The translations under genes and the position numbers were made by a program. From Acidimicrobiales bacterium (GTDB lineage Bacteria > Actinomycetota > Acidimicrobiia > Acidimicrobiales > Bin134): a stretch of 64,000 nucleotides of DNA. The notes beneath the pieces were generated by a model. The model was not told the DNA's origin, did no database searches, and worked only from the letters and a program-made list of their open reading frames with translations. Location: assembly GCA_965208805.1 (NCBI GenBank), contig OZ242355.1:3744878-3808877 (forward strand), written 5' to 3'. Positions 4 to 45,361 of the stretch are shown in pieces. Position 1 is the stretch's first letter, and each line of letters starts with the position of its first letter.

Positions 4-1677
4 ATGCCTGACCCCGCCCCGACCGGCCCCGTCGTCCTGCCGGTTCCCGCCCCGGCCGATCCGATCGAGTTCCCGCCCTACGAGCCGACCATTCCGGCGA
101 TGATCCGGGCGGCGGTCGATGCCCACGGCCATCGGCCGCTGGGCGTGCTGGAAGAACAGCGCATGACCTACGCCGACGCCGACGACGCCTCGGCCGCCAT
201 AGCCAAGGGGCTGCTGGCCATCGGCGTGGGCAAGGGCACTCGGGTGGGGCTGCTGGCCCCTAACGGCCCCGACTGGATCGCCGCCTGGCTGGCCATCGGC
301 CGCATCGGCGCCCTCGGCGTGATGCTCAACACCTACTACAAGGCCCGAGAGCTCGATTGGGCCCTGCGCCACGCCGACGTGCAGGTGCTGTTGTGCGCCC
401 CCCGCCATCTTGGTCACGACTACCTCGACCGCATCGAGGAGATCGCCAGCCCCGGCGACGACCCCGCCATCCGGTCACTGTCGCACCCCTATCTGCGATC
501 GGTGTGGGTTTGGGGCCAGCCCGATCGGCCCTGGGCCAGGTCGATGGACGACCTGCTGGCCGCCGGCGAGGCGGTGAGCGACGAGCTCTTGGTCGCCGCC
601 GAGGCCCAGGTGACCCCGGCCGATGAGTTCGTGGTGGTGTACACCTCGGGCAGCACCGCCGCGCCCAAGGGCGCCATCCATACCCAGGGGCCGATGGTGC
701 GCCACGCCCACAACCTGGGGCAATACCGCGACCTCACCCCCGACGACCGCCTCTACACCCCCATGCCGCTGTTCTGGGTGGGGGGCATGTCGTTCACCCT
801 GGTGGCCGCCATCCACGTGGGCGCCGCAATGGTGTTCGAGGAGCGATTCGACCCCGGCGAGACTCTGGCTCTCATCGAGCGGGAGCGGGTGACCATCGTC
901 GCCGGTTGGCCCCACATGTCCAGGATGCTCACCGACCACCCCGATTTCGAAAAGCGCGACCTGTCCTCGGTGCGGGGCGGCAGCCTCGACGTGCTCTTGC
1001 CCCCCGAGCTGCGGATCGGCGACGTCGAGCTGCGGGTCAACTCGCTGGGCATGACCGAGACCCTCGGCCCCCACACCTTGGGCGTGATGGGCAACCAGCT
1101 GCCCGAGGAGAAGCGGGGATCCTTCGGCTGGACCGTTCCGGGCATGGAGCACCGCATCGTCGATCCGGCCACCGGCGAAGACTGCCCGACGGGGGAGCAG
1201 GGCGAGGTGTGGGTTCGGGGCTACGCCCTCATGACCGGGTTGTACAAGGTGGAGCGAGCCGACGCCTTCACCCCCGACGGCTGGTACCGCACCGGCGACC
1301 GCGGCTACTTCGACGAGCACGGCTACTTCTTCTTCACCGGCCGGATGGGCGACCTCATCAAGTCGGCGGGCATGAACATCGCCCCCCGAGAGGTGGAGCT
1401 GGTGCTGGAAGAGCCCGAAGAGGTCATGCACGCCTTCGTCTGCGGCGTGCCCCATCCCGACCGGCTGGAGGACGTGGCCGCCGCGGTGGTACTGCGCCCC
1501 GGTCAGCAGCTGACCGCCGAGCAGCTCGTCGCCTATACCGCGGCGCGGGTGGCGTCGTACAAGGTTCCCCGCCATCTCGCCGTCTACGAGACCCCCGACG
1601 AGCTCCCCTGGCTCGACTCGGGCAAGATCGACCGCATCGGCGTCCAACAGATCCTCACCGAGCGCTACCCCGGATGA
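4..1677 (+). CDS. AMP-dependent acyl-CoA synthetase/ligase (FadD-like)
   Basis: 557-aa ORF. AMP-binding motif YTSGSTAAPKG, downstream WYRTGDRGYFDEHGYFFFTGR and C-terminal SGKIDR. The stop overlaps the next start (ATGA at 1674). Confidence 0.9.
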   Translation: MPDPAPTGPVVLPVPAPADPIEFPPYEPTIPAMIRAAVDAHGHRPLGVLEEQRMTYADADDASAAIAKGLLAIGVGKGTRVGLLAPNGPDWIAAWLAIGRIGALGVMLNTYYKARELDWALRHADVQVLLCAPRHLGHDYLDRIEEIASPGDDPAIRSLSHPYLRSVWVWGQPDRPWARSMDDLLAAGEAVSDELLVAAEAQVTPADEFVVVYTSGSTAAPKGAIHTQGPMVRHAHNLGQYRDLTPDDRLYTPMPLFWVGGMSFTLVAAIHVGAAMVFEERFDPGETLALIERERVTIVAGWPHMSRMLTDHPDFEKRDLSSVRGGSLDVLLPPELRIGDVELRVNSLGMTETLGPHTLGVMGNQLPEEKRGSFGWTVPGMEHRIVDPATGEDCPTGEQGEVWVRGYALMTGLYKVERADAFTPDGWYRTGDRGYFDEHGYFFFTGRMGDLIKSAGMNIAPREVELVLEEPEEVMHAFVCGVPHPDRLEDVAAAVVLRPGQQLTAEQLVAYTAARVASYKVPRHLAVYETPDELPWLDSGKIDRIGVQQILTERYPG

Positions 1678-3044
1678 CCTTCATCCACGACCTGCTCACC
1701 GTCGTGCCCCGACGGGACGACTTCATCGTCGCCGGAGACCGCCGCCTGTCCACCGGGGAGGTGATCGACTGGGCCCAGCGGGCGTCGGCTGATCTCGAAC
1801 CGGGCCAGCCCACTGCTTTCCAACTCCCCACCAGCCCTGAGGGCGTGGTCGCCTACCGGGCCTGCTGGCGAGCTGGCGCGGTGCCCGTCCCCCTGCTCCA
1901 CGCCGACGGCGGCCGCCAACGGGATCATGCATTCACCCTTCTCGGCCTGAACCGGCTCTTCGATCCCACCGACCACGCCGACGGCGACCCCTCTCCCCAT
2001 CCCCCCGCCCCAACCAACCCCGACGACCGGGCCCTCATCATGTTCACCTCCGGCTCATCGGGCGTCCCCAAGGGGGTGGTCCACACCCAGGCCTCCATCG
2101 CCTACAAGGTGCGCCAGTACATCCACATCAGCGGCCTCACCGCCGACGACACCGTGCTGTTCCCGGCCTCGCTGGCCCACGTGGCCGGCCTCCTGCACGG
2201 CGTGCTCATCCCTGGAGCGCTCTCCATGAAGACCGTGCTCATGGCCCGCTGGGATCCGGGCGAGGCCCTTCGGCTCATCGAGCACGAGCAGGCCACCTAC
2301 ATGATCGGACCGCCCACCTTCTTCAACGACCTTATGGACCACCCCGACTTCAGCCCCGGCCGGACCGCCTCCTTCCGGTTCCTCTCCATCGGCGGCTCCA
2401 GCGTTACCCCCGCCTTCGTGCATCGGGCCCGAGAGGCTTTCGGCTGCATTGTCAAGCGGGCCTACGGCTCCACTGAGGCCCCCACCGTCACAACCTGCAC
2501 CAACCACGACGATCCCGAGCGCATGGCCAACACCGATGGCCGCCCGTTCTCGCCCACCCAGATCAGGATCGACGAGCACGGCGAGATCCAGGTCCACGGC
2601 CCCGAGGTGACCGTCGGCTACCTCGACCCCGCTCACACCGCTGCTGCCTTCACCGACGACGGCTGGTTCCGCACCGGCGACTTGGGCCAGATCGATGAAG
2701 GCGGCTTTCTTACCGTCGTCGGACGGCTGGGCGACAGGATCATCCGAGGTGGCGAGAACATCGACGCCACCGAGGTGGAGGCCATCTTGGAGTCCCATCC
2801 GGCGGTGAGCCAGGCCGTAGCGCTGGGCGAGCCCGACGACCGCCTCGGCGAGCGGGTGGCCGCCTTCGTGGTGGCCGACGGCCCCTTCGACCTCGACGAG
2901 TGCCGCCGCTGGTTCTCCGAGGCCGGAGCGGCCCGCTTCATGACCCCCGAGCGCATCATCCCGATCGACGACATGCCCACTATGCCCTCGGGAAAACCCG
3001 ACCGCACCCAGTTGACCGAAAAACTCCGGCCCCCAACCCGATAA
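1674..3044 (+). CDS. AMP-dependent synthetase/ligase, second paralog
   Basis: ATG at 1674 lies in frame inside track ORF 906..3044. Motifs FTSGSSGVPKGVVHT, GWFRTGDLG and PSGKPDR. The 906-1673 part is an off-frame overlap of the upstream gene. Confidence 0.85.
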   Translation: MTFIHDLLTVVPRRDDFIVAGDRRLSTGEVIDWAQRASADLEPGQPTAFQLPTSPEGVVAYRACWRAGAVPVPLLHADGGRQRDHAFTLLGLNRLFDPTDHADGDPSPHPPAPTNPDDRALIMFTSGSSGVPKGVVHTQASIAYKVRQYIHISGLTADDTVLFPASLAHVAGLLHGVLIPGALSMKTVLMARWDPGEALRLIEHEQATYMIGPPTFFNDLMDHPDFSPGRTASFRFLSIGGSSVTPAFVHRAREAFGCIVKRAYGSTEAPTVTTCTNHDDPERMANTDGRPFSPTQIRIDEHGEIQVHGPEVTVGYLDPAHTAAAFTDDGWFRTGDLGQIDEGGFLTVVGRLGDRIIRGGENIDATEVEAILESHPAVSQAVALGEPDDRLGERVAAFVVADGPFDLDECRRWFSEAGAARFMTPERIIPIDDMPTMPSGKPDRTQLTEKLRPPTR

Positions 3045-3054
3045 ACTTCCTGTC

Positions 3055-3726
3055 GTGGCCCAGTACCAGACCCCCGAGTGGCACCCGGCGTTCGAGGAGT
3101 ATTGCGAGACGATCTTCGAGCTGGCCGAAGACGACGTCGACGTCATCCAGGCCCGGGTGGCTGAGCGCCTCGACGTGTCCCGCCCCGCAGTGTCCGAGAT
3201 GATCCACCGCTTGGAGGCCGAGGGCCTGGTCACCCTCAAGGGCCGGTCGATCGAGCTGTCTCCCGATGGAATGGACCTGGCCGAGCGGGTGGTGCGCCGC
3301 CACCGCCTCGCCGAGGTGTTCCTCACCCAGGTGCTGGGCCTGTCGTGGGCCGACGCCCACGCCGAGGCCGGCAAATGGGAGCACGTCATCTCACCATTGG
3401 TAGAGCAGGCCATGATGCGAGTGCTTGACGATCCCACCACCTGTCCCCACGGCAATCCCATCCCCGGTTCCGACTACCAGGCCCCTCCAACCCTGGCGTT
3501 GGCCAAAGTCGAAGTGGGCCAGCGCTTTGTGGTCACCCGCATCACCGAGGAGCTGGAGTTCACCGAGGGGCTGCTCGACTTCCTGGAGGGCTCTTTGGTG
3601 ATCCCCGGAGCCCAGGGGATCATCACCGCCTCCTCGCCCGACGGCACCACCACCGTGGAGATCGACGGCAACCACGTCGGCATCGGCGGCTTCGCCAGCG
3701 AACGCATCTTCGTCACCGCCGCTTGA
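3055..3726 (+). CDS. DtxR/IdeR/MntR-family metal-dependent transcriptional regulator
   Basis: 223 aa. N-terminal wHTH (VAERLDVSRPAVSEMIHRLEAEGLV), a metal-site region (RRHRLAEVFL, WEHV, CPHGNPIP) and a C-terminal SH3/FeoA-like domain. Confidence 0.85.
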   Translation: MAQYQTPEWHPAFEEYCETIFELAEDDVDVIQARVAERLDVSRPAVSEMIHRLEAEGLVTLKGRSIELSPDGMDLAERVVRRHRLAEVFLTQVLGLSWADAHAEAGKWEHVISPLVEQAMMRVLDDPTTCPHGNPIPGSDYQAPPTLALAKVEVGQRFVVTRITEELEFTEGLLDFLEGSLVIPGAQGIITASSPDGTTTVEIDGNHVGIGGFASERIFVTAA

Positions 3727-3763
3727 ACCGGCCAGAGACCGATAGCCGTAAGAGGGTGTTCGG

Positions 3764-4183
3764 CTACCCCGTGTAGACGGTGAAGCCCTGGTCGCTGAAG
3801 TCTTGGTCGAATGCGAAGGCGGTGTCGATGCCGTGCTCTCGCATGATCTCGAACGACATCCAATCGACCAGCGAAATGCCGCGCTTTCCGGCGGCCAACA
3901 ATGCGGCCATTGCTCTGCTGTACAGAGAGGGTGCCACCCATTGCACCTCGATTGTTGGCAAAACGCTGTTGTGGAACTCCCGGACTGCTTCTAAGCCGAT
4001 TCTCCGGGCTATGAGGGCAACCGTCTCGATGACCACCCCTGAGTGGGTCACCAAGTGCTCTTCGCCCGCTGCCCCTCGGGTGGCGTGGATGCTTACCATC
4101 TCCAATGCAGAGGAATGGTTCTCGTCGTTCCCGTCGAGGAAGGCGTAGATGGCCGAGGTGTCGATGAAGATCGGATTGCTCAC
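3764..4183 (-). CDS. vapC: PIN-domain toxin VapC
   Basis: 139 aa. N-terminal IFIDTSAIYAFL with the acidic PIN residue, then later D/E residues. It overlaps the upstream antitoxin gene by 4 bp. Confidence 0.85.
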   Translation of the reverse strand: MSNPIFIDTSAIYAFLDGNDENHSSALEMVSIHATRGAAGEEHLVTHSGVVIETVALIARRIGLEAVREFHNSVLPTIEVQWVAPSLYSRAMAALLAAGKRGISLVDWMSFEIMREHGIDTAFAFDQDFSDQGFTVYTG

Positions 4184-4422
4184 TCCAGATACGCCTCTTC
4201 CAGTGCCTCATCGTGTTGGGTAGACGTGTCTACATGGCTAGAGCGGAAAGTTCCGGCGGCAGACATCAACCGCTGGTATCTCTCGCTGCGTTCGGCTCGT
4301 TCAAGCTGGGCATCGAGAGCCTCGCGAATGACCGCTGACTGAGACATTGCTCGAGCCGCCGCATGCTCGCGCAGTCGCTCTGCCTGCTCCTTCTTCAGTG
4401 AAATTTGAGTGCGAATCATCAT
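4180..4422 (-). CDS. vapB: Ribbon-helix-helix (CopG/VapB-type) antitoxin
   Basis: 80 aa. RTQISLKKEQAERLREHAAARAMSQSAVIREALD is a typical RHH pattern. The gene is translationally coupled to vapC. Confidence 0.75.
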   Translation of the reverse strand: MMIRTQISLKKEQAERLREHAAARAMSQSAVIREALDAQLERAERSERYQRLMSAAGTFRSSHVDTSTQHDEALEEAYLE

Positions 4423-4429
4423 GCCTACA

Positions 4430-4465
4430 TTATTATATCATAGAACTGTATTCATGATGTAATAA
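4430..4465. promoter_or_regulatory. Imperfect inverted repeat upstream of vapB, likely the autoregulatory operator
   Basis: TTATTATATCAT (4430-4441) and ATGATGTAATAA (4454-4465) are reverse complements with one mismatch. They sit in an AT-rich stretch 8 bp upstream of the vapB start. Confidence 0.45.
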
Positions 4466-4567
4466 TCGTTGCCTGCTCTTCCCACAGGCGGCAATCCAAA
4501 GAATGCTGACGGGCCAGACATTCTTGCAGTAGCTGCTGAGTATGGAGTCTTGAAGGTGGTCCGCGCG

Positions 4568-5359
4568 TTATTGGACGGAGGGCTCGTTTCGCAGCTCCGA
4601 TCGGGCGCCGCTCACGATCTCAGGAGGAATGGCCAGAAAGGTCGACACGGCGTCGTCGAGCGCCAGCCTCACGGGATCGGACGAAATATCGGCGAGCCCC
4701 TGTAGTTCAGTGCCGAGGTGCCGGTCGAAGATGTCGGCCAACGAGGCCGCTTGTTTCTCGTCTATGTCCGGCACGAGCATTTCACGGCATGGGGCCAGGT
4801 TCAGGTCTGGCCTTGACAGCACCTTTGGGGAAGCAACGGAGAGAAAATTGACGATTCCGGGCGTTGAATTCAGCCAGACGCACATCGCCTTTTCCCATTT
4901 GTCCCGGCTTATGCCGAGGCCTTGCCTTGCTCTGACGGGTATCCAATTGCTTCCCAATATGGGGTCATGCGACCACCCGGCGACCACCCGCAAGGTGTTC
5001 AGTCGCGGGAAGCGGCATATGAGCAGCCTTGATCTCATTGCCCAGTAGTCGGCAGCGCGCTTCTCCTTGCCGGACTTGGTTTGGAGATATACGTCGGCCT
5101 CTACACGCAATGACCTCATAATGGTCGTGTCGTTGGACCAGAGGGCCTTCGGCACTCCCTCGATTCCTTCTGTTGTGCTCCCTATGGGGGCATGACCCTT
5201 GGGTTCGAATGCGTCATGGACTCGTCGTCCGTGCGGTTCGACATGGGCCAGTTCGCCTAGCTTTGCTACCTGGAACAGATCGCCAGACGCGATCTGTTGG
5301 GCGAAACTGACCAAATGGTCCGATGTGATCCCCAATGGCCTCCATCGGCCTCTTGCCAT
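4568..5359 (-). CDS. Hypothetical protein; possible C-terminal (target-recognition-like) remnant of a DNA methyltransferase/type IIG-like gene
   Basis: 263-aa ORF in an AT-richer island, directly downstream of and on the same strand as 5408..5971. No catalytic motif was seen. The assignment rests on context and general resemblance only. Confidence 0.35.
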   Translation of the reverse strand: MARGRWRPLGITSDHLVSFAQQIASGDLFQVAKLGELAHVEPHGRRVHDAFEPKGHAPIGSTTEGIEGVPKALWSNDTTIMRSLRVEADVYLQTKSGKEKRAADYWAMRSRLLICRFPRLNTLRVVAGWSHDPILGSNWIPVRARQGLGISRDKWEKAMCVWLNSTPGIVNFLSVASPKVLSRPDLNLAPCREMLVPDIDEKQAASLADIFDRHLGTELQGLADISSDPVRLALDDAVSTFLAIPPEIVSGARSELRNEPSVQ

Positions 5360-5407
5360 CTTGTGGGCTGGCCACTCGGTGATGGTGCCGACAGATGCGT
5401 CTAAGCG

Positions 5408-5971
5408 TTAAGCGTGGAGCGCGGCGGCAACGGCTGTGGCATCCACGACGGACCTCGCATTACGCCTCAGTACCGCAAACTTGGTTAGGGGGCGGCGGGC
5501 TGGGTCTGCCTCCCGGTGTCGTCGTGCCACAACCAACATCTCGGCGATGTCAGTGTTCTCTGAGAAGCAGGTTCGGACAGGGTCGTGGCTGGCGATAATC
5601 CATTCGATGTGAAACCACTCGGCAAGGAGCTGACGGATGCCAGCAGCGGATGGAGCCGAGGATCCGGCGAGGGGAAACACGAATGCGAGCGTTGCCCCTT
5701 GGTCGAGCTTGGCGAGGTGTTCACCGAGGTCTATGAACATGGTACCCAGAGCGGTCGCGTCGGCAGACCTGTCACGGGCAAGCTGCTTTTCCCGCTTCCT
5801 AATGTAACCCCGCTCCTTGTTTCCCAACTGCTGATGACGCAGCGAGTGTTCGTAGTCGACAGAGCACCAGTCGGGGAGATACTCCTCAAGCAAATGACAT
5901 AGCCGCTGGTTGAGAAAGGTCTCAAGTTTGCTGCCTGTCCGCCCTGACAGGTGACCTGTCCGAGTTGCCAT
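5408..5971 (-). CDS. Hypothetical protein; resembles the post-catalytic segment of N6-adenine DNA methyltransferases, with no SAM-binding or NPPY motif present
   Basis: 187 aa. ATLAFVFPLAGSSAPSAAGIRQLLAEWFHIEWIIASHD...FSENTDIAEMLVVARR resembles the region that follows motif IV in gamma-class MTases. The N-terminal catalytic half is absent. Confidence 0.35.
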   Translation of the reverse strand: MATRTGHLSGRTGSKLETFLNQRLCHLLEEYLPDWCSVDYEHSLRHQQLGNKERGYIRKREKQLARDRSADATALGTMFIDLGEHLAKLDQGATLAFVFPLAGSSAPSAAGIRQLLAEWFHIEWIIASHDPVRTCFSENTDIAEMLVVARRHREADPARRPLTKFAVLRRNARSVVDATAVAAALHA

Positions 5972-6166
5972 GCGCTCCTCCCCGCCAGCCTCGAGATGCT
6001 GACAGCCGGAAACGTTAGCGGCAGCGGCCCGCCGCTAGCGGTTTGGTGGTTGGGACATCGGAAGGCTGAAGCTGCCTGCGTGCAGTGCCGGGTACACGCC
6101 CGCATTGGCAGCGCGGATGCTTGTCGGTAGGATAACCGACAGCCGTCGCGCAGCGCGTGACACCAG

Positions 6167-9100
6167 ATGAACAACACCGAAATCAGACTGTTCGTCGGCG
6201 ACCCCGTCACGAACACAGCAGAGCTGAACCTCATCAACCGCTTGCGGTCTGATCTGGCTCGGCATGGCATTAGCGGAACTCTCTACGCGAATTTCTTTAC
6301 GGAGGCGCGCCAGTCGCTTCAGATTGACTTGCTGGTCAGGACCGAATCCCGTACTGCTCATGTGGAGATCAAGGGCTTCAGTGCCGAGCACCCGATCCGG
6401 GGGTATCGAAACGGGAATTGGGCACAGGTCTTGCCCGGAGGGAAGGAGCGTACGCTCGGCAAGAACTGCGGGCGGCAAGCACTCTCAGGCACCTACACCA
6501 TCAGCGACGCGATGCGCAGCCTCGCACAAGCGGGCGTAGTCACTTCAGCTGAAGGCGGCTTTTTCCGCTACATTGATTCGATTGTGGGGATATGGGAGAG
6601 GGTCCCTAGCGGTTCCGACATCGACCCGCCGCCCCATGTGACGGTGACGGGGTACCAGGAGCTTCTTGAACGACTGAGGCAACCTGGGCCCGTCGTGCCG
6701 TGGTCGGACGAAGAATGGGATGAATTCGCCCGACACCACAGCCTCTTCCAACTCGAGGAAACCTCCCCTGCTGAAGCGAGACGACGCGACGCCACGGCGA
6801 TTGTCGACGACTACCGCATTCGCTCTAGGGCCAGCCTCTCCAATGGTCTCAGCCCCTTCATAAGCTTGGAAGTTTCCGGGCCGGATGTATCTTCGTCCGA
6901 CGCAGACGGCATTGGCCGATGGGTTGCCGACGGGCGTTCGGCAGCGGTTGTAGGCCCGTCGGGAAGCGGAAAGTCGTTTCTGGCAAGGCATTTGGCGGTT
7001 CGCCACTGCGATGAAGGACGCATGGTGATCTGGATTCAGGCCAGCGACTACACCATGGGGGAATTCCGAGCCTTGCTGGCCCGCGCGCTCGGGTCGTTCA
7101 GCATCGAGCGAAGGAGCGATTTGGTAGATGCCGCTTCCGATGCCGGGGTTCCCCTCACGGTAGTAGTAGATGGGCTGAACGAATGTCCGAGCAAAGAGCG
7201 GGATGAGCTGTTGCGGCAGTTGCAGGCGTTCACCTTGCGACACCCAGCGGGAATGCTCATCACGAGCACGACCCAAGAAGGTCTCGGCGGCACAGGCCCC
7301 GTAGACGTATTTCGGCTCCATGAACCCGACGAGAGCACCCGCGTTGCCATTCTGTCCTCCCACGGCACCCGGCGACCAGATTTGATCAGCAGCCAGTTCC
7401 GCATACCGCACGACCTCGCCATAGCCGCCCAATGCGCCAACGAAATAGGAGATAGCGCCACGGTCGCCGACCTGCACGACGCGTTCATTCGAAAGCACGT
7501 CCCAACCGAGCATTTGAGGGCTGGTCTGCGCGCTCTGGCAAGCCACCTCCACACGACGCTGAGGTCGAGTGTCGCGCTGATGGAGGCCGTCAAGGTCCTC
7601 AGTTCACCCAACCTAGGCCTTTCCGCTGAGCAAATGGACGCTGTTTTCGGCACCGCGCTGCTCAAGGTTAACGGGCACCGCATCCGGTTCCGCCACGATC
7701 TGTTCGGCCAGCACCTCGCCGCCGAGGCTCTTGTCCTCGCGTCCGAGTCAGGGCAAGGGCTCGGAGCGACCCTCAGCGTTCCTGCCAACCGGGCTCTTAT
7801 TCCGGCCGCTCTGGGCATCGAAAAGGATGGAGTGCAAACTTGGGCCGCTCTGTACGAACTGGCCGATCCTTCCCTCGTCGCCGCATCCCTTCTTGGCACC
7901 TACGGACCAGAAATGGCCCAGAGGGCAAAGGACATCGTCCGGGAGGCTTTGCGGGCCGGGATTGCCGACACCGCCACGGGCAACGCCAGCATTAGGAGCA
8001 TTGAACCGGGGACGCTCAAAGGCGTGCAAGAAGGATTCGGGCACTGGGCCACATCGGGCAGGAGGACAGAGTCCGATCAGGTGCTCCTGGTTGCCAGCGG
8101 AATAGCTCTCGAAATGTTCATCGACGAGGCATGCGAATTAATCGACCTGACCGACGAACTGTGCCAAGCACAAGCACGCAGACTCAAGGCAGAGGGCATA
8201 GCCGATGCCGAGCATGCGGTTATCAGGCCCACCTACAGCAGCACCGTCTTTCTTGCGCGCTCTGGGGAAGAACTCGCTGCAACCCTGCTCGTGAGGGGTC
8301 TTCGAGAATCTGCGAGGTTCTCGCCGCGCTCGTGTGAGGGAAAGCCACGTGAATTGGCCAGGCGATTCGCCGAAGAGGCTGGCCCCCGGTCTTGGGGCCG
8401 CTACTTCGCTGCCATACTGAGTATCGTTCCGGATGACCTCGATGATCAGGCGCTAGTCGCGTCGCTGCTGAAGCGGGCATGGGATGCAGGCAACCTCGAT
8501 TTGCGGCTTGAAGCCCTTGACATGGTCCGACGCATCCGGTGCCACGCCGAAATCGGTGAACCGCACCGCTCTGAGATAGGCAGGACACTTCTGTCGCTCG
8601 AACCAGGCAAATTTCTTGCAGAACACTACCGCCTCGACGAAGAGTTGTCAGCGTTCGGCCAAATCGATAACACAACTGATTCCGGCAGGCTCCGCGACGA
8701 GATCAGAGCCGACATCGCTAGTTCGTTTAACATCGACACGGCCCGTCGGATCGCTGCCATGCAATACGACAACCAAGACATTTGCGGCCCCTATAGGGAA
8801 GCGATTGACGGCCTCGAAGATCGGGAAAAGGCACAACTGCTCGCTACGGCCGCCTCCGGCGATACAAGACACACGGTGTTCATCAACCTGATGATCGCCC
8901 AGCTCGTCGATATAGTTCCCACCGGCGATCACGCAATCGACGAAACCGCTAGAGCTGTCTTCGCCACACACATGATCTGTCCTCACGAAGACGCGTTCAT
9001 GGAGCACGAGGCTATAGGTGCTTACCTGTACGCCATTAGAGGATGGGCCAAATTCGAGAGGGCGCTCCCTTCTCAAGCCGGTGATCCAGGGTCCCATCGC

Positions 9101-9541
9101 ACAAGTTGGCATCTCCTCGCAGGGTTGCAGCTTCGCTATGAACGCGATGACGCCCAAGTCGACGCGGCGCAGACTTGGGATGCCCTCCTCGCCGATCCCA
9201 GCCGCACAGCCGTGACCCTAACCCTCATTGATCACTCGGACTCCAAGCATGAATTCGACGAAGGCCACCAGCTCGTACGGCGACGCACCCTACCTGATCG
9301 CCTAGCAAGCGACTACCCGAAGCCGATGCGGCAGCTACTCAGGTGGGTACTTGAGAACCCATCTGAAGTCGCCCTGGATGTCTATAAGCAGCGCAGAGTG
9401 GTGGCATTCGCCATTCGAACACTCGGTGAGACCGGCGACGAATCCAGTGCCAAAATACTGCACCCCTACACCCTTGACCCTGAGACCGGTGACATAGCCG
9501 TCGAAGCAATACGGCAGATACACAATCGAGCCGCCTCATAA
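6167..9541 (+). CDS. NERD (PD-(D/E)xK-like) nuclease domain fused to a NACHT/STAND P-loop NTPase and a long helical (HEAT-like) C-terminal region
   Basis: 1124 aa. NERD-like N-terminus (QIDLLVRTESRTAHVEIKGF ... NGNWAQV). Walker A AVVGPSGSGKSFLARHL. NACHT-type Walker B LTVVVDGLNEC. About 750 aa of helical repeats end in a HEAT-like IRTLGETGDESSAKILHPYTLDPETGDIAVEAIRQI. Confidence 0.7.
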   Translation: MNNTEIRLFVGDPVTNTAELNLINRLRSDLARHGISGTLYANFFTEARQSLQIDLLVRTESRTAHVEIKGFSAEHPIRGYRNGNWAQVLPGGKERTLGKNCGRQALSGTYTISDAMRSLAQAGVVTSAEGGFFRYIDSIVGIWERVPSGSDIDPPPHVTVTGYQELLERLRQPGPVVPWSDEEWDEFARHHSLFQLEETSPAEARRRDATAIVDDYRIRSRASLSNGLSPFISLEVSGPDVSSSDADGIGRWVADGRSAAVVGPSGSGKSFLARHLAVRHCDEGRMVIWIQASDYTMGEFRALLARALGSFSIERRSDLVDAASDAGVPLTVVVDGLNECPSKERDELLRQLQAFTLRHPAGMLITSTTQEGLGGTGPVDVFRLHEPDESTRVAILSSHGTRRPDLISSQFRIPHDLAIAAQCANEIGDSATVADLHDAFIRKHVPTEHLRAGLRALASHLHTTLRSSVALMEAVKVLSSPNLGLSAEQMDAVFGTALLKVNGHRIRFRHDLFGQHLAAEALVLASESGQGLGATLSVPANRALIPAALGIEKDGVQTWAALYELADPSLVAASLLGTYGPEMAQRAKDIVREALRAGIADTATGNASIRSIEPGTLKGVQEGFGHWATSGRRTESDQVLLVASGIALEMFIDEACELIDLTDELCQAQARRLKAEGIADAEHAVIRPTYSSTVFLARSGEELAATLLVRGLRESARFSPRSCEGKPRELARRFAEEAGPRSWGRYFAAILSIVPDDLDDQALVASLLKRAWDAGNLDLRLEALDMVRRIRCHAEIGEPHRSEIGRTLLSLEPGKFLAEHYRLDEELSAFGQIDNTTDSGRLRDEIRADIASSFNIDTARRIAAMQYDNQDICGPYREAIDGLEDREKAQLLATAASGDTRHTVFINLMIAQLVDIVPTGDHAIDETARAVFATHMICPHEDAFMEHEAIGAYLYAIRGWAKFERALPSQAGDPGSHRTSWHLLAGLQLRYERDDAQVDAAQTWDALLADPSRTAVTLTLIDHSDSKHEFDEGHQLVRRRTLPDRLASDYPKPMRQLLRWVLENPSEVALDVYKQRRVVAFAIRTLGETGDESSAKILHPYTLDPETGDIAVEAIRQIHNRAAS

Positions 9542-9607
9542 CCTCCTGCCCAAGTACCACACCACTAGGACGGCGATCACGCCTTTGGATCAGACAGACT
9601 CGTAGAT

Positions 9608-10789
9608 GTGGACCTAGCCCCCACACCGGAGCAGGAGGCGTTTCGACACGAATGCCGCCAGTGGCTTCAGGAGAACCTTCCCTGGGAATACGGCCAAGGT
9701 CTGCCGCCCCTGTTCGACGATCTAGCTGAAGAGGTCGCCTTCCTCCGCAAGTGGCAGGCCGCCCTGGCCGAAGCCCGCCTCGTCGGCGTGTCCTGGCCGG
9801 TCGAGTTCGGGGGTCGGGGCGCAGGCCCGCTCGATCACTACATCGTTCAGGAGGAGCTGGCCCGAGCCCGGGCCCCCGAGCTGGTGGGCCGCCTGGGCGT
9901 GAACCTGATCGGCCCCACCATCCTGGCCCACGGCACCGACGAGCAGAAACAGCGCTGGCTTCCCTCGATCCTCCCCGCCGAGCAGCTCTTCTGCCAGCTG
10001 TTCAGCGAGCCCGATGCCGGCAGCGACCTGGCCTCGCTGTCCACCCGGGCCACCCCCGCCGACGGCGGCTGGCGGCTCAGCGGCCAAAAGGTGTGGACCT
10101 CCTACGCCCAGTTCGCCGACTGGGGCCTGTGCCTGGCCCGATCCCACCCCGACGAGCCCAAACACCGCGGCATCACCGCCTTCATGGTCGACATGCACGC
10201 CCCCGGTGTCGACATCCATCCCCTGCGCCAGATGACCGACGAGTCCGACTTCAACGAGGTCTTTCTCAACGACGTGTTTGTGGCCCACGACCAGGTGATC
10301 GGCGAGCCCGGCAACGGCTGGCGGGTGTCGCAGTCCACCCTCAGCGTGGAGCGGGGCACCAACCCCCGCCAGCTCGTCATCCACCTTCAGCTCCTGGAGG
10401 AGCTGTTCCGCCTGGCCGCCGACACCGGCCGCAACCAAGACCCCGTGGTCCGCCAGGCCTTAGCCCGCTCCTATATCGAGGTCCGGCTGTTCCAGCTCCA
10501 GAACTGGCGGGTGCTGTCCCGGCTGGCCCACGGCCGCGACCACGGCCCGGAGTCGGCCACCGCCAAGCTCTTTTGGAGCGAGATGAGCCAGCGACTGCAC
10601 CGCACCGCCATGGATGTGCTGGGCGCCGCCGGCCCGCTGTGGCGGGGCGATCCCCACAACCCCGGGGAGGGACGCTGGCAGCGATCCTGGCTGTACTATC
10701 AAGCTGCGACGATCTTCGCCGGAACCAGCGAAATCCAGCGCAACATCATCGGGGAGCGCACCCTGGGTTTGCCCAGGGAACCTCGTTAG
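9608..10789 (+). CDS. Acyl-CoA dehydrogenase
   Basis: 393 aa with ACAD-type N, middle and C domains (SEPDAGSDLASL, GQKVWTSYA, FAGTSEIQRNIIGE). Confidence 0.9.
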   Translation: MDLAPTPEQEAFRHECRQWLQENLPWEYGQGLPPLFDDLAEEVAFLRKWQAALAEARLVGVSWPVEFGGRGAGPLDHYIVQEELARARAPELVGRLGVNLIGPTILAHGTDEQKQRWLPSILPAEQLFCQLFSEPDAGSDLASLSTRATPADGGWRLSGQKVWTSYAQFADWGLCLARSHPDEPKHRGITAFMVDMHAPGVDIHPLRQMTDESDFNEVFLNDVFVAHDQVIGEPGNGWRVSQSTLSVERGTNPRQLVIHLQLLEELFRLAADTGRNQDPVVRQALARSYIEVRLFQLQNWRVLSRLAHGRDHGPESATAKLFWSEMSQRLHRTAMDVLGAAGPLWRGDPHNPGEGRWQRSWLYYQAATIFAGTSEIQRNIIGERTLGLPREPR

Positions 10790-10797
10790 GAGTTCTC

Positions 10798-11631
10798 ATG
10801 AGCACCGATTTCGACACCATCGAATACAGGGTCGACGAGGCGGTGGCCACCATCACCTTGAATCGGCCTGATGTGGCCAATGCCCAGGACACCCAGCTGA
10901 TCGATGAGCTTGACGCCGCTTTCGACCTGGCCGAGGCCGACGACGAGGTGCGGGTGGTGGTGATGGCCGCCAACGGCCGCCACTTCTCCGCCGGCCACGA
11001 TCTCAAGGCCCTGGTGGGCGACGTGGAGCCCGACAAGTGGCGGCAGATGCGGACCACCCCGGAGGGCAAGTTCCACCACGAGAAAACCATGTATTTCGAC
11101 CGCTGCCTGCGCATTCGGGACTTCCCCAAGCCCACCATCGCCGCCGTGCACGGCAAGTGCATCGCCGCGGGCGTGATGCTGGCGGCCATGTGCGACCTGA
11201 TCGTGGCCTCCGACGACGCCTCCTTCCAGAACCCGGTGCTGCGCATGACCGGCGCCGCAGTGGAAATCCTCATCGAGCCCTGGGAGATGCCGCCCCGCAA
11301 GGCCAAGGAGTTCCTGCTCACCGCCCAGACCATCTCCGCAGCCGACGCCGAGCGCCTGGGCATGGTCAACCGGGTAGTGCCCCGCGACGAGTTGGCCGCC
11401 ACCACCAAGGAGATGGCCGAGGCCATCGCCCTAGTCCCCCCGGCCACCGCCGCCGTGGTGAAGCGGTCCATCAACAAGACCCTCGAGCTGATGGGCCAGA
11501 AAGACTCCTGGGACTACCACTTCATGGCCCACCACTGGATGCACAACACCGACACTGCCCTGGGCGCGCTGGAGCGGCGCATGCAGAAGTCGTCGATGAA
11601 GGAAGTCTTTGCCGAGCACCGCGATGAGTAA
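10798..11631 (+). CDS. Enoyl-CoA hydratase/isomerase (crotonase) family
   Basis: ATG at 10798 lies in frame in track ORF 9751..11631. ATITLNRPDVANAQD, NGRHFSAGHDLK and AAVHGKCIAAG are crotonase signatures. Confidence 0.9.
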   Translation: MSTDFDTIEYRVDEAVATITLNRPDVANAQDTQLIDELDAAFDLAEADDEVRVVVMAANGRHFSAGHDLKALVGDVEPDKWRQMRTTPEGKFHHEKTMYFDRCLRIRDFPKPTIAAVHGKCIAAGVMLAAMCDLIVASDDASFQNPVLRMTGAAVEILIEPWEMPPRKAKEFLLTAQTISAADAERLGMVNRVVPRDELAATTKEMAEAIALVPPATAAVVKRSINKTLELMGQKDSWDYHFMAHHWMHNTDTALGALERRMQKSSMKEVFAEHRDE

Positions 11632-12844
11632 GCCGCTTACCGGCACACTGGAGCTCGATGTCGAGCGGCTGCGGCGGGAGCGGTACGCCAAGCTCCAGGC
11701 CCAGATGGCCGCCGACGGGCTCGACGCCCTGGTGCTGCTCCACGGTCCCCATGTGGCCTACGCCACCGACTGCCTGCCCATAGCTGCCGACGCCACCCAC
11801 GTCTCGGCCAACCGCCCGGTGGCCGTGGTCCTGGCCGACCAATCCCAGCCCTGCCTGCTGGGCGGCGATCCCGACGGCCTCGACGTCGACGCACACCCGG
11901 CGGTGTGGCCCGACATCGACGAGGGTGCCGCCGACCTCGGCGTCCAGCTCGACGCCATTCTGGGCCGCATTGCCCAAGGTGGGCGTGTCGGCATGGACCT
12001 GATGACCGGGGCCATGCGCCGCACCAGCGTGCTGTCGGCCGCGCACATCACCGACGCGGCCAACACCATGGGCGCGGTCAAGCTCCACAAGACCATCGAC
12101 GAGCTGGCCTGCGTCCACCAAGCCCAAGCCCGCACCAACCGGGCCATGGCTACCGTCCAAGAGGCCCTCGTCCCCGGCGTGCGCCGCAGCGAGCTGGCCG
12201 CCGTGTTCCTCCGCCGCCTCCGGGAAGAGGGCATCGACGCCAACATGATCGACGTCATCTTCCAGCCCATGGCCCGGCGCATAGCCGACGGCCCCCGCAC
12301 CACCACCGGCCACCTCGCCTTCCCCACCTGGTCGGGCGACCCCGTCTACGCCGAGGGCGACCTCATCTGGGTGGACGCCGGCAGTGACTACCACGGCTAC
12401 GCCTCCGACTTCGGCCGCACCTGGGTGGTCGGCCGCCCGCCCACCCTCGCCGAGCAGCGCTGCTTCGAGCGGTGGCTGGCGGTGATGGACGCTTCCTACG
12501 AGGCCATCGTGCCCGGCACCACCTTCGCCGACGTGTGCGCCGCGGCCACTGCCGCCGACGCCGGCCACCAGCCCGACGGCGAGCGCCCCTGGATGCCCCA
12601 CTTCTACCTCGTTCACGGGGTGGGCATCGAGAGCGCCGAGATGCCCTTCTTGGGAACCGACAACGGCCCCGACTTCGACGCCGCCAACACCCTGGAGCCC
12701 GGCATGGTGCTGGTGCTGGAGCCCGCCATCTGGGACGACGGCACCGGCGGCTACCGGGCCGAGGAGATCGTGGCCGTCACCGAAGACGGCTGGATCCCCC
12801 TGGGGGGCGGCCACCCCTACGACCCCTTCGAGGTGCCGACGTGA
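11624..12844 (+). CDS. M24-family (Xaa-Pro peptidase/creatinase-like) protein
   Basis: ATG at 11624 overlaps the upstream stop; TTG at 11609 is an alternative start. Creatinase-like N domain (DGLDALVLLHGPHVAYATD) and a pita-bread fold C domain (DAGSDYHGYASDFGRT, HGVGIE, LEP). Confidence 0.8.
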   Translation: MSKPLTGTLELDVERLRRERYAKLQAQMAADGLDALVLLHGPHVAYATDCLPIAADATHVSANRPVAVVLADQSQPCLLGGDPDGLDVDAHPAVWPDIDEGAADLGVQLDAILGRIAQGGRVGMDLMTGAMRRTSVLSAAHITDAANTMGAVKLHKTIDELACVHQAQARTNRAMATVQEALVPGVRRSELAAVFLRRLREEGIDANMIDVIFQPMARRIADGPRTTTGHLAFPTWSGDPVYAEGDLIWVDAGSDYHGYASDFGRTWVVGRPPTLAEQRCFERWLAVMDASYEAIVPGTTFADVCAAATAADAGHQPDGERPWMPHFYLVHGVGIESAEMPFLGTDNGPDFDAANTLEPGMVLVLEPAIWDDGTGGYRAEEIVAVTEDGWIPLGGGHPYDPFEVPT

Positions 12845-40393: not shown

Positions 40394-41629
40394 TTGCCTC
40401 TAGTAAAGGTGGGGCGGTCTGGAATATTGTCGGCAGGCACCAGCCATGACGCTCAGGAAGGGGTATGCGTGGAGCGAGTTGAACCGGCGAGCTGTCTCAC
40501 CTCATGGAATCCAGATGGTTTGGCTCGGCTCGCCTCTCATCTGGCTGAAGCCGAAAGCAAAGGCTGTCCTTGCACACTTGACCTGTCCGATGAGGCTATT
40601 GCTGGCAGTTCTAGCCCCGCGGCAGTGCGACTCGATATCCCCTCGGTGATGGTCGCTGCCAATCTTCTGGTAGGACGATTTCAGGACCTGCCGGTGGAAG
40701 TGCAGCTTCCCTGTTCAAATGGACTCAACCTCCAATTGGCACGTGGTGGCCTTTTCTTTGCCTTGGCAAAGCGTGAAGGGAGGGTCGCCTGGTCAGGTGG
40801 TGCTCCAGAGGCGTGGGAGAAGGTCGCTCGAACTTGGATCCAGCCGTTTCACCCGAATGATGAGGCGATGTACCGGAATGCCTTGGTGGATGTCCGGGAC
40901 GTGGAGCGGGAACCCTGGGTTGTTCGTGCTGCGTTCCAACGGTATCTCCTCTCGGTAATCCATCCGCATCTCAGACCGGCGTACTCCCTACGCGCTGACC
41001 TTGATGAGATCGCGCAGAGATGGCTCAGCATGAGGCTGGACATCCCTCAGGGTTCCAAGCTTGTCAGCACTCTGAGGGACTGTGCAGCGATCTTCTATGA
41101 AATATGCGTGAACGTTCCCGACCATGCTGGTCTTGGTGGTAATTCCTCAGGAGTTTCGCTTGGCCAGATATACGTGACCCTCGGTGGAGGGCGCGACAGC
41201 TACAACCGGCTTCACATGTCAGTGGCGGACAACGGAGTCGGGCTGCCTCAGCGGGTGAACGAAAGGTACCCCAAGCTTATTCGGACCTCCGAGCAGGCTT
41301 TGTTGGACGCGATCATGGGCAATTTGCCTCGACGAGAGGCTGGCCGCGGTGTGGGCCTCGGCTTGGTCCGCGAGATCGCGGACCAATATGCCCAGGGTGA
41401 ACGTGATGTCGGTGGTCCTAGCAGCATCCACATCATCACCAATGGTGACGACGAGCACTCGACTTCTGAGATTCGCTGGGAAGCCGGTGCCGATCCCGCA
41501 GTAGCTGGGGTGAGGGATCTTCCAGTGCAAGGCACCCTCGTATGGGTCTGCTTGGGTCTCGAACGCAGAACTCCGTTTGACGACTACCACCAGGCCGAGT
41601 TGACCTTCGCCGAGCCGGTATTCGGGTAA
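40394..41629 (+). CDS. Stand-alone GHKL (histidine-kinase-type HATPase_c) ATPase with an uncharacterised N-terminal half
   Basis: 411 aa with a TTG start (start uncertain). N-box FYEICVNVPDHA, G1 VADNGVGLP and G2 GRGVGLGLVREI all lie in the C-terminal third. No TM segment or His-phosphoacceptor (DHp) motif was seen. Confidence 0.6.
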   Translation: MPLVKVGRSGILSAGTSHDAQEGVCVERVEPASCLTSWNPDGLARLASHLAEAESKGCPCTLDLSDEAIAGSSSPAAVRLDIPSVMVAANLLVGRFQDLPVEVQLPCSNGLNLQLARGGLFFALAKREGRVAWSGGAPEAWEKVARTWIQPFHPNDEAMYRNALVDVRDVEREPWVVRAAFQRYLLSVIHPHLRPAYSLRADLDEIAQRWLSMRLDIPQGSKLVSTLRDCAAIFYEICVNVPDHAGLGGNSSGVSLGQIYVTLGGGRDSYNRLHMSVADNGVGLPQRVNERYPKLIRTSEQALLDAIMGNLPRREAGRGVGLGLVREIADQYAQGERDVGGPSSIHIITNGDDEHSTSEIRWEAGADPAVAGVRDLPVQGTLVWVCLGLERRTPFDDYHQAELTFAEPVFG

Positions 41630-41639
41630 GCCCCAAAAT

Positions 41640-44168: not shown

Positions 44169-44249
44169 AAGCTGCAAGTTCCTGCACTAGCCCTAAGCCC
44201 TGCCTGACGCCTGCCAACGTCAGCCCACTGACCGGGACCAGCTTGCCGG

Positions 44250-44510
44250 TCATGGGGGTGGGGTGAGGTGAATGCCTTTCATGGGGGGAATATCGTCGTC
44301 GCCTTCGGCGAGTTTGATGGCAGCCCAGTCGCGCAAGACTGATTCCAGTTCGGCGAGAGCCTCTTCCTTGGATTCCCCGAATGCCCAAGGACCTTTAAGC
44401 CCAGAAATTGTCGCCACAACACCGTCGGGGTCCTGGATTTGCTCAACAGTGGCATAAGAGACAGCAGCCTCTGCCCATCGGTCGATTATCGCTTCCATCT
44501 GAACTCCCAC
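44250..44510 (-). CDS. hicB: HicB-family (UPF0150) antitoxin-like protein
   Basis: 86 aa (or 82 from ATG 44498). VATISGLKGPWAFGESKEEALAELESVLRDW is the typical HicB N-domain pattern. Confidence 0.65.
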   Translation of the reverse strand: MGVQMEAIIDRWAEAAVSYATVEQIQDPDGVVATISGLKGPWAFGESKEEALAELESVLRDWAAIKLAEGDDDIPPMKGIHLTPPP

Positions 44511-44537
44511 CCGCCGAGCTTGTCACATGCCGCTGAG

Positions 44538-45359
44538 ATGTCGCGGCAGCAACTGAATCCTATTGTAGTTGCGTTTTGGTTGCGATATCCTGGCGATGTG
44601 CTCTACCTCGAAGATCTGCTGGAAACGGATCTCTCCACCGCATCAGCAAGGGCCGCCCAGGAGATACCCGATATCGTCGCCGCGCTCGATCAACTCGTTC
44701 CGCGAGTCCAGAGCTCGCACAACTTGGCAACGGTTCGTCGATTCGACTCCTACATCGACATGGCTGCGCAATGGCTGGCCAACCTGCAAGCACGCCGGCC
44801 CGAGGCCCTTCCCCCTCGCTTCTTCCTGTATGAGCAGCTTCGGAAAACCACAGACACGCTGCCGTGGGTAATCCCATCAGCCGACGGGCTCGGGGTGGCC
44901 ACTGCGCTGGTCGACAAGTTGAGGGGTCTCGCCGGCGGGCTGCATCAGGAGTGCCTGCGGCCCCGCGACGATATTGACGAGTATTTCTTCTCTCGCTTCT
45001 GCAAGGCCCTAGCCCAAGCGCAACAGGACCAAGAGGGCAGCGAGCCATTGCGGCGGACTATGGAAATCCTCAATCTGTCGAAGAGCGATGTGGGCCACCT
45101 CATGGGAGTCAGCCGCCAGGCAGTCGACAAGTGGCTCCTCGCTGGTCCTCCCGCTGATCGAGCCCCGAAGATCGGCGCCATTGCCGAACTCGCCGCCATT
45201 CTTCGGTACCGCCTTCTCCCCGGCCTGCCCGAAGAAGTTGTGCGACGGCCAGCCGAAGCCTACGAAGGGCGCACCATGCTCGAGTTGATCGCCAACGACG
45301 AGCACGAATGGCTGCTGCAATCGACCAAGGACAGCTTCGACTTCAGCCGGGTCGCCTGA
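44538..45359 (+). CDS. Xre-type HTH antitoxin with a C-terminal MbcA/ParS (DUF2384-like) toxin-binding domain
   Basis: ATG at 44538 lies in track ORF 44439..45359. HTH LSKSDVGHLMGVSRQAVDKWLL. C-terminal RPAEAYEGRTMLELIANDEHEWLL. Sits immediately upstream of the RES gene. Confidence 0.7.
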   Translation: MSRQQLNPIVVAFWLRYPGDVLYLEDLLETDLSTASARAAQEIPDIVAALDQLVPRVQSSHNLATVRRFDSYIDMAAQWLANLQARRPEALPPRFFLYEQLRKTTDTLPWVIPSADGLGVATALVDKLRGLAGGLHQECLRPRDDIDEYFFSRFCKALAQAQQDQEGSEPLRRTMEILNLSKSDVGHLMGVSRQAVDKWLLAGPPADRAPKIGAIAELAAILRYRLLPGLPEEVVRRPAEAYEGRTMLELIANDEHEWLLQSTKDSFDFSRVA

Positions 45360-45361
45360 CC

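Follow-up and report, generated by a model that had tools for sequence, protein, structure and literature searches.

Among the described bacterial immune receptors, Avs4 reportedly begins with a PD-(D/E)xK nuclease, which is followed in the same polypeptide by a STAND NTPase and a large sensor built of helical repeats. The NACHT-containing protein bNACHT25 consists of an Mrr-like nuclease and a NACHT module, and mutation of its winged-helix histidine renders it toxic in a nuclease-dependent manner (Kibby et al., “Bacterial NLR-related proteins protect against phage”); by the title of PMC12169576, it senses phage via the host chaperone DnaJ. In SeAvs7, binding of a capsid protein lifts the autoinhibition, and the Cap4 nucleases come together as a tetramer (Lee et al., Nature 2026); the same paper reports a survey of 589 STAND clades and 684 sensor clusters. 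Here we describe a gene of comparable design in a stretch of 64,000 nucleotides (the window) from contig OZ242355.1 of an Acidimicrobiales bacterium. Its product has a NERD-type nuclease domain, a NACHT-like STAND NTPase and a helical solenoid, in that order (Table 1). As judged from its sequence and predicted structure, it is an intact bacterial NLR-type immune receptor gene, and adds a new member, as yet uncharacterised, to a class of anti-phage proteins that is already well known; it is no new kind of system.

The original prediction had placed an open reading frame at positions 6167–9541. This frame stands; it lies on the forward strand, starts with ATG and encodes 1124 residues, and all the motifs quoted with it are present in the translation: QIDLLV (residues 52–57), HVEIKGF (65–71), NGNW (82–85), GPSGSGKS (263–270) and VVVDGLNEC (332–340). 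A protein database search returned 70 homologues, most of them full length and with E = 0. The family alignment used throughout comprises 33 sequences that are 27–70% identical to the window protein, on which all invariant residues are numbered. In this alignment the homologue N-termini align with the proposed start, MNNTEIRLFVGDP. We therefore conclude that the frame is a real gene and not a chance open reading frame in high-GC DNA.

The structure of the full-length protein was predicted with AlphaFold2 from the 33-sequence alignment, giving a mean predicted local distance difference test score (pLDDT) of 88.6 and a predicted template modelling score (pTM) of 0.71. The model has three parts: an N-terminal α/β domain; a P-loop domain, extended by helical and winged-helix parts to about residue 528; and an almost purely helical C-terminal remainder. 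Comparison of the full model with the PDB using Foldseek gave as the best match Avs4 bound to the portal of phage PhiV-1 (8dgf; E 1.8e-9 over about 1300 alignment columns, with a template modelling score (TM-score) of only 0.28). NLRC4 came second (E 1.5e-7), and the NACHT modules of NLRP14, NLRP3 and NLRP9 were found at 1e-6 to 1e-5 and the archaeal STAND-TPR protein 6mfv at 9e-5. Cdc6/ORC, CED-4 and EfAvs5 appeared within the top 50 at about 1e-4 to 1e-3, among other AAA+ proteins. In a viral structure library, the top fold match of the receptor model is annotated as an NLR-family protein. Searches of PDB sequences with the window protein, with the 33-sequence profile and with a profile of the N-terminal domain gave P-loop matches only, or none, and NCBIfam and PADLOC scans of the window protein were likewise confined to matches at the level of the P-loop.

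The N-terminal module is predicted to be a nuclease of the NERD type. The Pfam NERD family (PF08378) matches 20 of the 33 members at E ≤ 1e-3, with a best value of 1.6e-9, and several homologues carry precomputed PF08378 matches; in the window protein the match covers residues 18–94 with 22.0 bits (curated cutoff 22.1, E 2.4e-4). Five residues of the domain are invariant: E19, D54, E67, K69 and Q104. D54, E67 and K69 provide the catalytic signature D…(D/E/Q)xK, for which we used the (D/E/Q)xK motif definition of the NERD-defence literature, and E19 is the accompanying glutamate of the N-terminal helix. The invariance of E19, D54, E67 and K69 speaks against a degenerate nuclease. The order of the predicted elements (helix 17–32, strands 37–44, 52–59 and 63–69, and helix 101–121) fits the α-β-β-β-α core of PD-(D/E)xK enzymes, and the viral structure library includes a phage “Nuclease-related domain protein” whose fold is similar, though weakly so (E 0.029, probability 1.0). 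The family matches, the invariant residues and the order of elements thus all favor the NERD / PD-(D/E)xK assignment made originally for the N-terminus. The bridge that connects the nuclease to the NTPase contains the invariant residues S150, Y163, L166, W179 and W184, and is partly retained in relatives in which the effector has been swapped.

The central module has the layout of a STAND NTPase: in the AlphaFold2 topology a P-loop domain is followed by helical and winged-helix domains and then by a large repeat region, and STAND proteins head the Foldseek matches. NACHT is the Pfam family that matches the largest number of the 33 members (26 at E ≤ 1e-3, best 4e-8). In the window protein the NACHT score is 19.7 bits, below the cutoff of 26.7; two of the effector-swapped relatives exceed this cutoff, with 32.4 and 29.5 bits. 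Of the other P-loop families, AAA_16 gives 28.2 bits on the window protein (cutoff 32.6), while NPHP3_N and nSTAND3 match 23 and 17 of the 33 members (best E 3.9e-7 and 1.6e-5, respectively) and are sub-threshold in the window protein. These matches support the STAND/NACHT assignment of the original prediction, as does the ranking of Avs4, NLRC4 and NLRP3 above Cdc6/ORC and other AAA+ proteins: by its fold matches in the PDB, which STAND proteins lead, the NTPase does not group with non-STAND ATPases.

The winged-helix motif RFRHDLFGQHLAAE of the window protein contains the invariant residues F508, H510 and A519, and resembles the winged-helix motif of NLRs, FxHxxFQEFLAA. Judged by this motif, H510 appears to be the equivalent of H443 of NLRC4, a winged-helix histidine that contacts ADP and stabilises the ADP-bound inactive state (Kibby et al.). 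The Walker B motif had been described as NACHT-style, and this holds in part: VVVDGLNEC is present at residues 332–340, but its core D335-G336-L337-N338-E339 agrees at four of the five positions with D[GAS]hDE, the motif that marks NACHT proteins (Kibby et al.; Koonin and Aravind 2000). Because DGLNE deviates by an invariant Asn, we refer to the module as NACHT-like and not as a strict NACHT; with Asn at this position, the NTPase cycle may differ.

The region that follows is predicted to be an all-helical solenoid of ARM/HEAT-like character, with no identifiable specific class. When modelled alone (residues 530–1124), it reached a pLDDT of 90.3 and a pTM of 0.85, and consists of about 30 helices and two small hairpins. 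The nearest structures found by Foldseek in the PDB were β-catenin, AP2, importin-β, PR65 and condensin, at E values of 1e-3 to 7e-2 and TM-scores of at most 0.28; in the PDB to April 2026 the isolated sensor had no match at E ≤ 1e-3 and no Avs chain among its top 50. Within the last helical units, G1090 and L1098 are invariant, and D1104, G1108 and V1112 nearly so. The final unit, RTLGETGDESSAKILHPYTLDPETGDIAVEAIRQI, is HEAT/PBS-like by eye, and no Pfam HEAT or ARM model matched the window protein at E ≤ 1. An earlier estimate of roughly 750 residues of helical repeat ending in a HEAT-like unit is therefore right about the solenoid and, by eye, about its end, but not about its extent: residues 340–528 (about 190) belong to the NTPase module, leaving a solenoid of about 600. 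Mean pairwise identity is 0.52 for NERD, 0.49 for NACHT, 0.43 for the bridge and 0.39 for the sensor, which is therefore the fastest-diverging module. The region C-terminal to NACHT is apparently also rapidly diversifying in proteins of the bNACHT01 clade (Kibby et al.).

An exhaustive profile search of 1.84 billion cluster representatives (of clusters at 50% identity) yielded 2564 matches at E ≤ 1e-3, of which 670 reached E ≤ 1e-30, so that the family numbers at least 670 clusters at the stricter threshold. The best 150 matches are mostly full length, and nearly all members are unnamed or called “hypothetical protein”. Named members occur in Acidimicrobiia, including metagenome-assembled genomes of Candidatus Poriferisocius and Aldehydirespiratoraceae, and in other Actinomycetota (Micromonospora, Dactylosporangium, Nocardia and Kitasatospora). 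The family reaches beyond Actinomycetota, because one Acidobacteriota genome (Acidiferrales; locus L019) has a divergent full-length member, at 6910–10341 on the forward strand. We note that this member is flanked by an 844-residue helicase-like protein and two uncharacterised open reading frames (neighbours at 4312–6846 and 10449–12330). A scan for family members on viral contigs found none, a result that we count as neutral and not as negative.

Domain-specific profiles were run on 212 retrieved relatives, and showed that the N-terminal module is exchanged. Most of the relatives (173) have NERD, NACHT and sensor; 33 have NACHT and sensor, three have NERD and NACHT, and three have the sensor alone. 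Thirteen of the 33 proteins with NACHT and sensor carry 175–325 residues in front of NACHT that do not fit the NERD profile, and the others have shorter N-termini. By motif, Mrr-like nuclease N-termini (GIDVV…QAK) were found in four relatives (P0186, P0193, P0198 and P0180), and Cap4-like ones with the motif D…QVK in two (P0184 and P0212), the former of which also has a weak match to Pfam Cap4_nuclease. P0210 and P0197 have in common an N-terminus of unknown type, P0098 and P0168 have helical N-terminal domains, again of unknown type, and P0070 has in place of NERD a domain that its source names SMEK. Exchange of the N-terminus on a constant chassis of NTPase and sensor is typical of bacterial NLR-like defence proteins, and for this reason we take NERD to be the output module.

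The surroundings of the homologues were read gene by gene at nine loci, all of which contain defence or mobile-element genes (Table 1); toxin-antitoxin genes, too, are among the neighbours of homologues. In the Poriferisocius loci, the DISARM-like block has PADLOC matches to DrmMI (1.5e-66) and DpdE/DrmD (2e-245) and also contains a DEAD/MZB helicase. A bulk scan of 85 neighbouring open reading frames at nine further loci matched type I restriction enzymes (1.9e-164), type I methyltransferases, DpdE/DrmD, AriA of PARIS (1.5e-34), AbiLi, HEC-01A and mads models. Enrichment of the homologues in defence islands, proposed as a check together with the original prediction, is thus seen at nine of nine loci in a qualitative sense. 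No neighbouring gene is conserved across the homologue loci, and it is for this reason that we regard the receptor as a single-gene system; nor do these loci have a conserved metabolic or regulatory neighbour. A conserved downstream partner was considered and rejected, in that the open reading frames of about 240 residues that follow the gene at L002 and L004 are unrelated.

Some further features of these loci are worth recording. At L001, two forward-strand genes (288–2825 and 3094–5349) directly upstream of homologue P0002, which is 70% identical to the window protein, encode unusually large proteins of 845 and 751 residues with only weak or faint phage-integrase matches; neither has a PADLOC match. 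In the Poriferisocius genomes, which come from sponge symbionts, the variable hotspot lies at about 13.4–23.4 kb (locus coordinates), between a conserved amidohydrolase gene and the DISARM-like block, and also contains a gene for an unknown protein of 1205 residues. The block itself encodes a DrmMI-like methyltransferase of about 1400 residues, a DpdE/DrmD-like SNF2 helicase of 966 residues and the DEAD/MZB helicase of 1789 residues.

Taken together, these findings make it probable that the product is an anti-phage receptor of the NLR type that acts as a single protein and works as follows. In the resting state the NACHT-like NTPase would be ADP-bound and closed, held in part by H510, with the NERD nuclease sequestered. 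On infection, the C-terminal solenoid would bind a phage-derived molecule, most likely a protein. Binding would open the NTPase, allowing it to bind ATP and to oligomerise, and oligomerisation would gather the NERD domains into an active PD-(D/E)xK nuclease. This nuclease would then cut phage DNA, and probably host DNA too, leading to abortive infection. We infer the autoinhibition, the ligand-triggered oligomerisation, the DNA substrate and the abortive outcome by analogy with Avs3, Avs4, Avs7 and bNACHT25. The architecture, invariant motifs, fold matches, effector swapping and genomic context agree with the original suggestion of a defence NLR with a NERD effector, as far as sequence and models can indicate.

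Several observations weigh against this interpretation. The whole case for this family is computational. The window protein falls just under the Pfam thresholds for both NERD and NACHT, none of the PADLOC defence models picks up more of the family than its P-loop, the profile of the N-terminal domain has no relative among PDB sequences, and its sole fold match to a NERD-annotated protein is weak. In the Walker B motif, the invariant Asn338 replaces the first of the two acidic residues of NACHT. The sensor is unlike any solved receptor in the Foldseek comparison with the PDB. Finally, the defence context of the homologues is a qualitative finding from the loci read gene by gene and in bulk.

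A more adventurous version of the receptor hypothesis, which we consider doubtful, is that the family forms an unclassified Avs-type lineage, centred on Actinomycetota and sponge-symbiont Acidimicrobiia, whose sensor recognises a class of ligand new to bacterial NLRs, or that it serves as a back-up which fires when a phage inhibits an adjacent adenine-methyltransferase system (DISARM, MmeI-type or type I); DGLNE could mark an altered nucleotide cycle.

Within the window, the gene lies in an island of low GC content, at about 3.5–9.5 kb, where GC is 0.58–0.62 compared with 0.68–0.70 outside. At third codon positions (GC3) the receptor gene has 0.67, the methyltransferase fragments 0.66–0.68, vapB 0.58 and vapC 0.79, against 0.88–0.93 for the flanking DtxR-like, acyl-CoA dehydrogenase and M24 peptidase genes; the overall GC of vapBC is 0.57–0.59. 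The island, which spans about 3764–9541 and contains vapBC, a methyltransferase remnant and the receptor gene, is compositionally foreign. The AT-richer island, the vapBC pair, the methyltransferase-like fragments and the lack of a partner on the same strand had all been noted originally, and each was recovered here: the pair consists of PIN and ribbon-helix-helix genes, and the next forward gene encodes the acyl-CoA dehydrogenase and has a host-like GC3. The borders of the island have no tRNA gene and no convincing flanking direct or inverted repeats.

The fragments were identified from contig L035, which has the same layout as the island part of the window and is 95–98% identical to it in DNA sequence. 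There they correspond to an intact N6-adenine methyltransferase gene of 788 residues (506–2872, reverse strand; PADLOC MTase_II 6.5e-14), directly upstream of the receptor gene and divergent from it. Relative to L035, 1423 bp are missing from the window copy (junction near 5846/5847). Both motif I (DPACGTG) and motif IV (NPPF) are gone with them, and the remaining sequence is interrupted by a stop between 5359 and 5408. The fragments themselves have no Pfam or NCBIfam match, and their identity came only from near-identical L035; the idea that they are remnants of an MmeI gene, like that beside P0002, was rejected.

These methyltransferases suggest a different reading, namely that the protein acts as the nuclease component of a system akin to restriction-modification, in which the neighbouring methyltransferase sets the adenine methylation and the solenoid reads DNA or its modification and not a phage protein. 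An N6-adenine methyltransferase gene indeed lies within a few kb of the receptor gene in every Acidimicrobiia-type locus read (the divergent 788-residue gene at L035, MmeI-type genes at L001 and L002, type I hsdM at L003 and DrmMI-like genes at L004, L033 and L034), and some systems linked to modification have NERD nucleases, an example being PglW in type 2 BREX. However, these methyltransferases belong to four unrelated families, mostly with partner genes of their own, which has the look of ordinary clustering in defence islands; there is no methyltransferase nearby in the Micromonospora and Nocardia loci, and the upstream methyltransferase has no relative in the 34 other loci compared. Its destruction in the window beside an intact nuclease-NTPase gene is hard to reconcile with a nuclease restrained by methylation. 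Moreover, the PDB fold matches are led by Avs, NLRC4 and NLRP proteins, and the lower-ranking AAA+ ATPases are replication, proteasome and similar proteins. We consider this reading quite unlikely.

The same comparison bears on whether the receptor gene is itself non-functional and decaying, carried along in an island that is breaking down and on its way to becoming a pseudogene. The adjoining methyltransferase is already a pseudogene in the window, and in L035, the closest relative, the receptor gene has an in-frame deletion of 131 sensor residues (at about 6152–6156, equivalent to window positions 8795–9187 or residues 877–1007), which may reflect natural variation of the sensor, decay, or faulty assembly of a contig built from short reads. 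Over their shared part the two receptor genes are 98% identical in DNA sequence, and the deletion is flanked by a 5-bp microhomology. Their ratio of non-synonymous to synonymous substitution rates (dN/dS) is 0.39, from 28 synonymous and 33 non-synonymous changes. This ratio shows signs of purifying selection, but with constraint that is only moderate and estimated from few substitutions (61). Against decay, the window copy is full length and uninterrupted over 1124 codons, retains all invariant residues of the 33-sequence alignment (by construction) and gives a structure model that is confident from end to end, so that we see only a slim chance that the gene is non-functional.

Very unlikely, in our view, is a STAND-type regulator or housekeeping switch like MalT or AfsR, with an N-terminus that is degenerate or a DNA-binding nuclease-like fold: many STAND clades are non-defence and are interspersed with defence clades in phylogeny, and all domain matches of the window protein are sub-threshold in Pfam, but E19, D54, E67 and K69 of the catalytic site are kept throughout the 33-sequence alignment, Pfam matches only NERD and P-loop/STAND models with no helix-turn-helix output domain detected, relatives swap the N-terminus for other nuclease effectors, and the gene sits in a compositionally foreign island beside toxin-antitoxin and methyltransferase genes, with homologues in defence islands or mobile elements.

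The features of the receptor gene, of its island and of the homologue loci are collected in Table 1. The promoter-like site listed there is one of two found in the region by a consensus scan, where chance alone would give 0.9; L035 retains the 320 bp that precede the receptor gene, and no intrinsic terminator was found after the gene. Elsewhere in the window there is a second low-GC island (about 40394–45871, forward strand, GC 0.58–0.61) that encodes a 411-residue HATPase_c protein, an 842-residue protein without a Pfam match, an open reading frame of 306 residues and a RES-domain toxin (45308–45871). This may be another defence or toxin-antitoxin cluster.

Table 1. Features of the receptor gene and its island in the window, and gene content of homologue loci read gene by gene.
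Feature	Position	Strand	Support or content
Complete receptor gene (NERD / NACHT-like STAND / helical solenoid)	6167..9541	+	ATG start, 1124 residues plus stop codon; open reading frame listing, translation
NERD-type PD-(D/E)xK nuclease core, residues 1–125, predicted effector	6167..6541	+	Pfam NERD, conserved residues, predicted fold order
Catalytic motif block QIDLLV…HVEIKGF, residues 52–71, with D54, E67, K69	6320..6379	+	Invariance in 33 sequences
Bridge region between nuclease and NTPase, residues 126–245	6542..6901	+	Mixed strand/helix in AlphaFold2 model
NACHT-like STAND NTPase module, residues 246–528	6902..7750	+	Nucleotide-binding domain, helical domain, winged helix; Pfam, Foldseek
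Walker A GPSGSGKS, residues 263–270	6953..6976	+	G266, G268, K269 invariant in 33 sequences
Walker B VVVDGLNEC, residues 332–340	7160..7186	+	D335, G336, N338, C340 invariant; E339 kept in at least 90%
Winged-helix motif RFRHDLFGQHLAAEAL, residues 507–522, with H510	7685..7732	+	F508, H510, A519 invariant
All-helical solenoid, residues 529–1124, predicted sensor	7751..9538	+	AlphaFold2; about 600 residues
Last helical units, residues 1072–1123	9380..9535	+	Helices 1072–1089, 1092–1103, 1108–1123
Promoter-like site TTGGCA, 17-nt spacer, TAGGAT	6105..6133	+	Ends 34 nt upstream of ATG; weak evidence
vapBC toxin-antitoxin pair, left island edge	3764..4422	-	VapC 3764–4183 (Pfam PIN 3.8e-10), VapB 4180–4422 (RHH_1, ribbon-helix-helix, 2.8e-8)
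Decayed N6-adenine methyltransferase, not a partner	4568..5971	-	Fragments 4568–5359 and 5408–5971, 5′ end truncated
Homologue locus L001			Two large integrase-like genes; MmeI-type enzyme
Homologue locus L002			MmeI-type enzyme, HEPN, ApeA, KAP NTPase, IS1595, AlpA
Homologue locus L003			AbiE; 1488-residue helicase matching TmtA (8e-55); type I restriction-modification operon; XhoI; Eco57I
Homologue loci L004, L033, L034 (Candidatus Poriferisocius)			Variable hotspot with PIN, Fic, IS1595, adjoining DISARM-like block
Homologue locus L005 (Micromonospora)			ABC-type ATPase; integrative conjugative element (FtsK, RepSA, Xis, integrase)
Homologue locus L006 (Nocardia)			TrwC relaxase; AAA_11/12-DUF2726 helicase; kinase

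Returning to the interpretation as an anti-phage receptor, we compared the protein with described systems module by module. The NERD subtype is shared with Nhi-like systems, Mokosh type I, PglW from type 2 BREX and HEC-02B, in which it is used or proposed as a defence effector. There, however, the partners of NERD are helicases, kinases, the inactive STAND module found in PglW, or a separate ABC ATPase, and in none of them is it combined with an active NACHT-type NTPase and a solenoid sensor. A literature search, incomplete in its coverage, found no paper that combines “NERD domain” and “NACHT”. If confirmed, the NERD nuclease would join the effectors that are wired to NACHT-type bacterial NLRs.

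Avs4, the best structural match of the model, has the same three-module logic with a different nuclease subtype, and neither it nor any other Avs structure was retrieved by the isolated sensor. Of the Avs profiles in PADLOC-DB v2, only Avs2 gave a match, at E 0.06 over residues 256–340 of the window protein and at 2e-4 in one of the 33 members, and none extended beyond the P-loop. By these profiles the protein is Avs-like in architecture only, and lies outside Avs1–5. In terms of mechanism, the template is provided by Avs3 and Avs7 (Lee et al., Nature 2026), in which binding to the helical-repeat sensor lifts autoinhibition, the NTPase oligomerises and the PD-(D/E)xK domains form an active DNase. 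Their effector is Cap4, which has counterparts in the Cap4-like N-termini on the NACHT and sensor of some relatives, whereas the window protein has NERD; their NTPase clade and sensor also differ from those described here. Avs3 and Avs4 reportedly behave in a similar way to SeAvs7. This family may already be among the 589 STAND clades catalogued in 2026; the main text of that survey makes no mention of NERD.

The gene leaves the current view of how such receptors work unchallenged, and will not surprise a specialist. It does define a sizeable and almost entirely unannotated family that the 2023 PADLOC models do not recognise, and gives the pattern-recognition receptors, for which characterisation has until now centred on enterobacteria, an actinobacterial and sponge-symbiont example. 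The swapping of NERD, Mrr-like, Cap4-like and SMEK domains on a constant chassis of NACHT and sensor provides a clean natural test of modularity, and a sensor that has no solved relative makes the trigger a testable question.

A close parallel is with bNACHT25 and the other nuclease-fused bacterial NACHT proteins (Kibby et al.), which have the same order within a single gene: a PD-(D/E)xK effector, a NACHT-type NTPase and a C-terminal region. The effector is Mrr-like in bNACHT25 and of the NERD type in the window protein, and the Walker B motif is D[GAS]hDE in the former group and DGLNE here. The winged-helix histidine equivalent to H443 of NLRC4 is conserved in both bNACHT25 and, as judged by motif, the window protein, and in the bNACHT proteins and the present family alike it is the C-terminal part that is the most variable.

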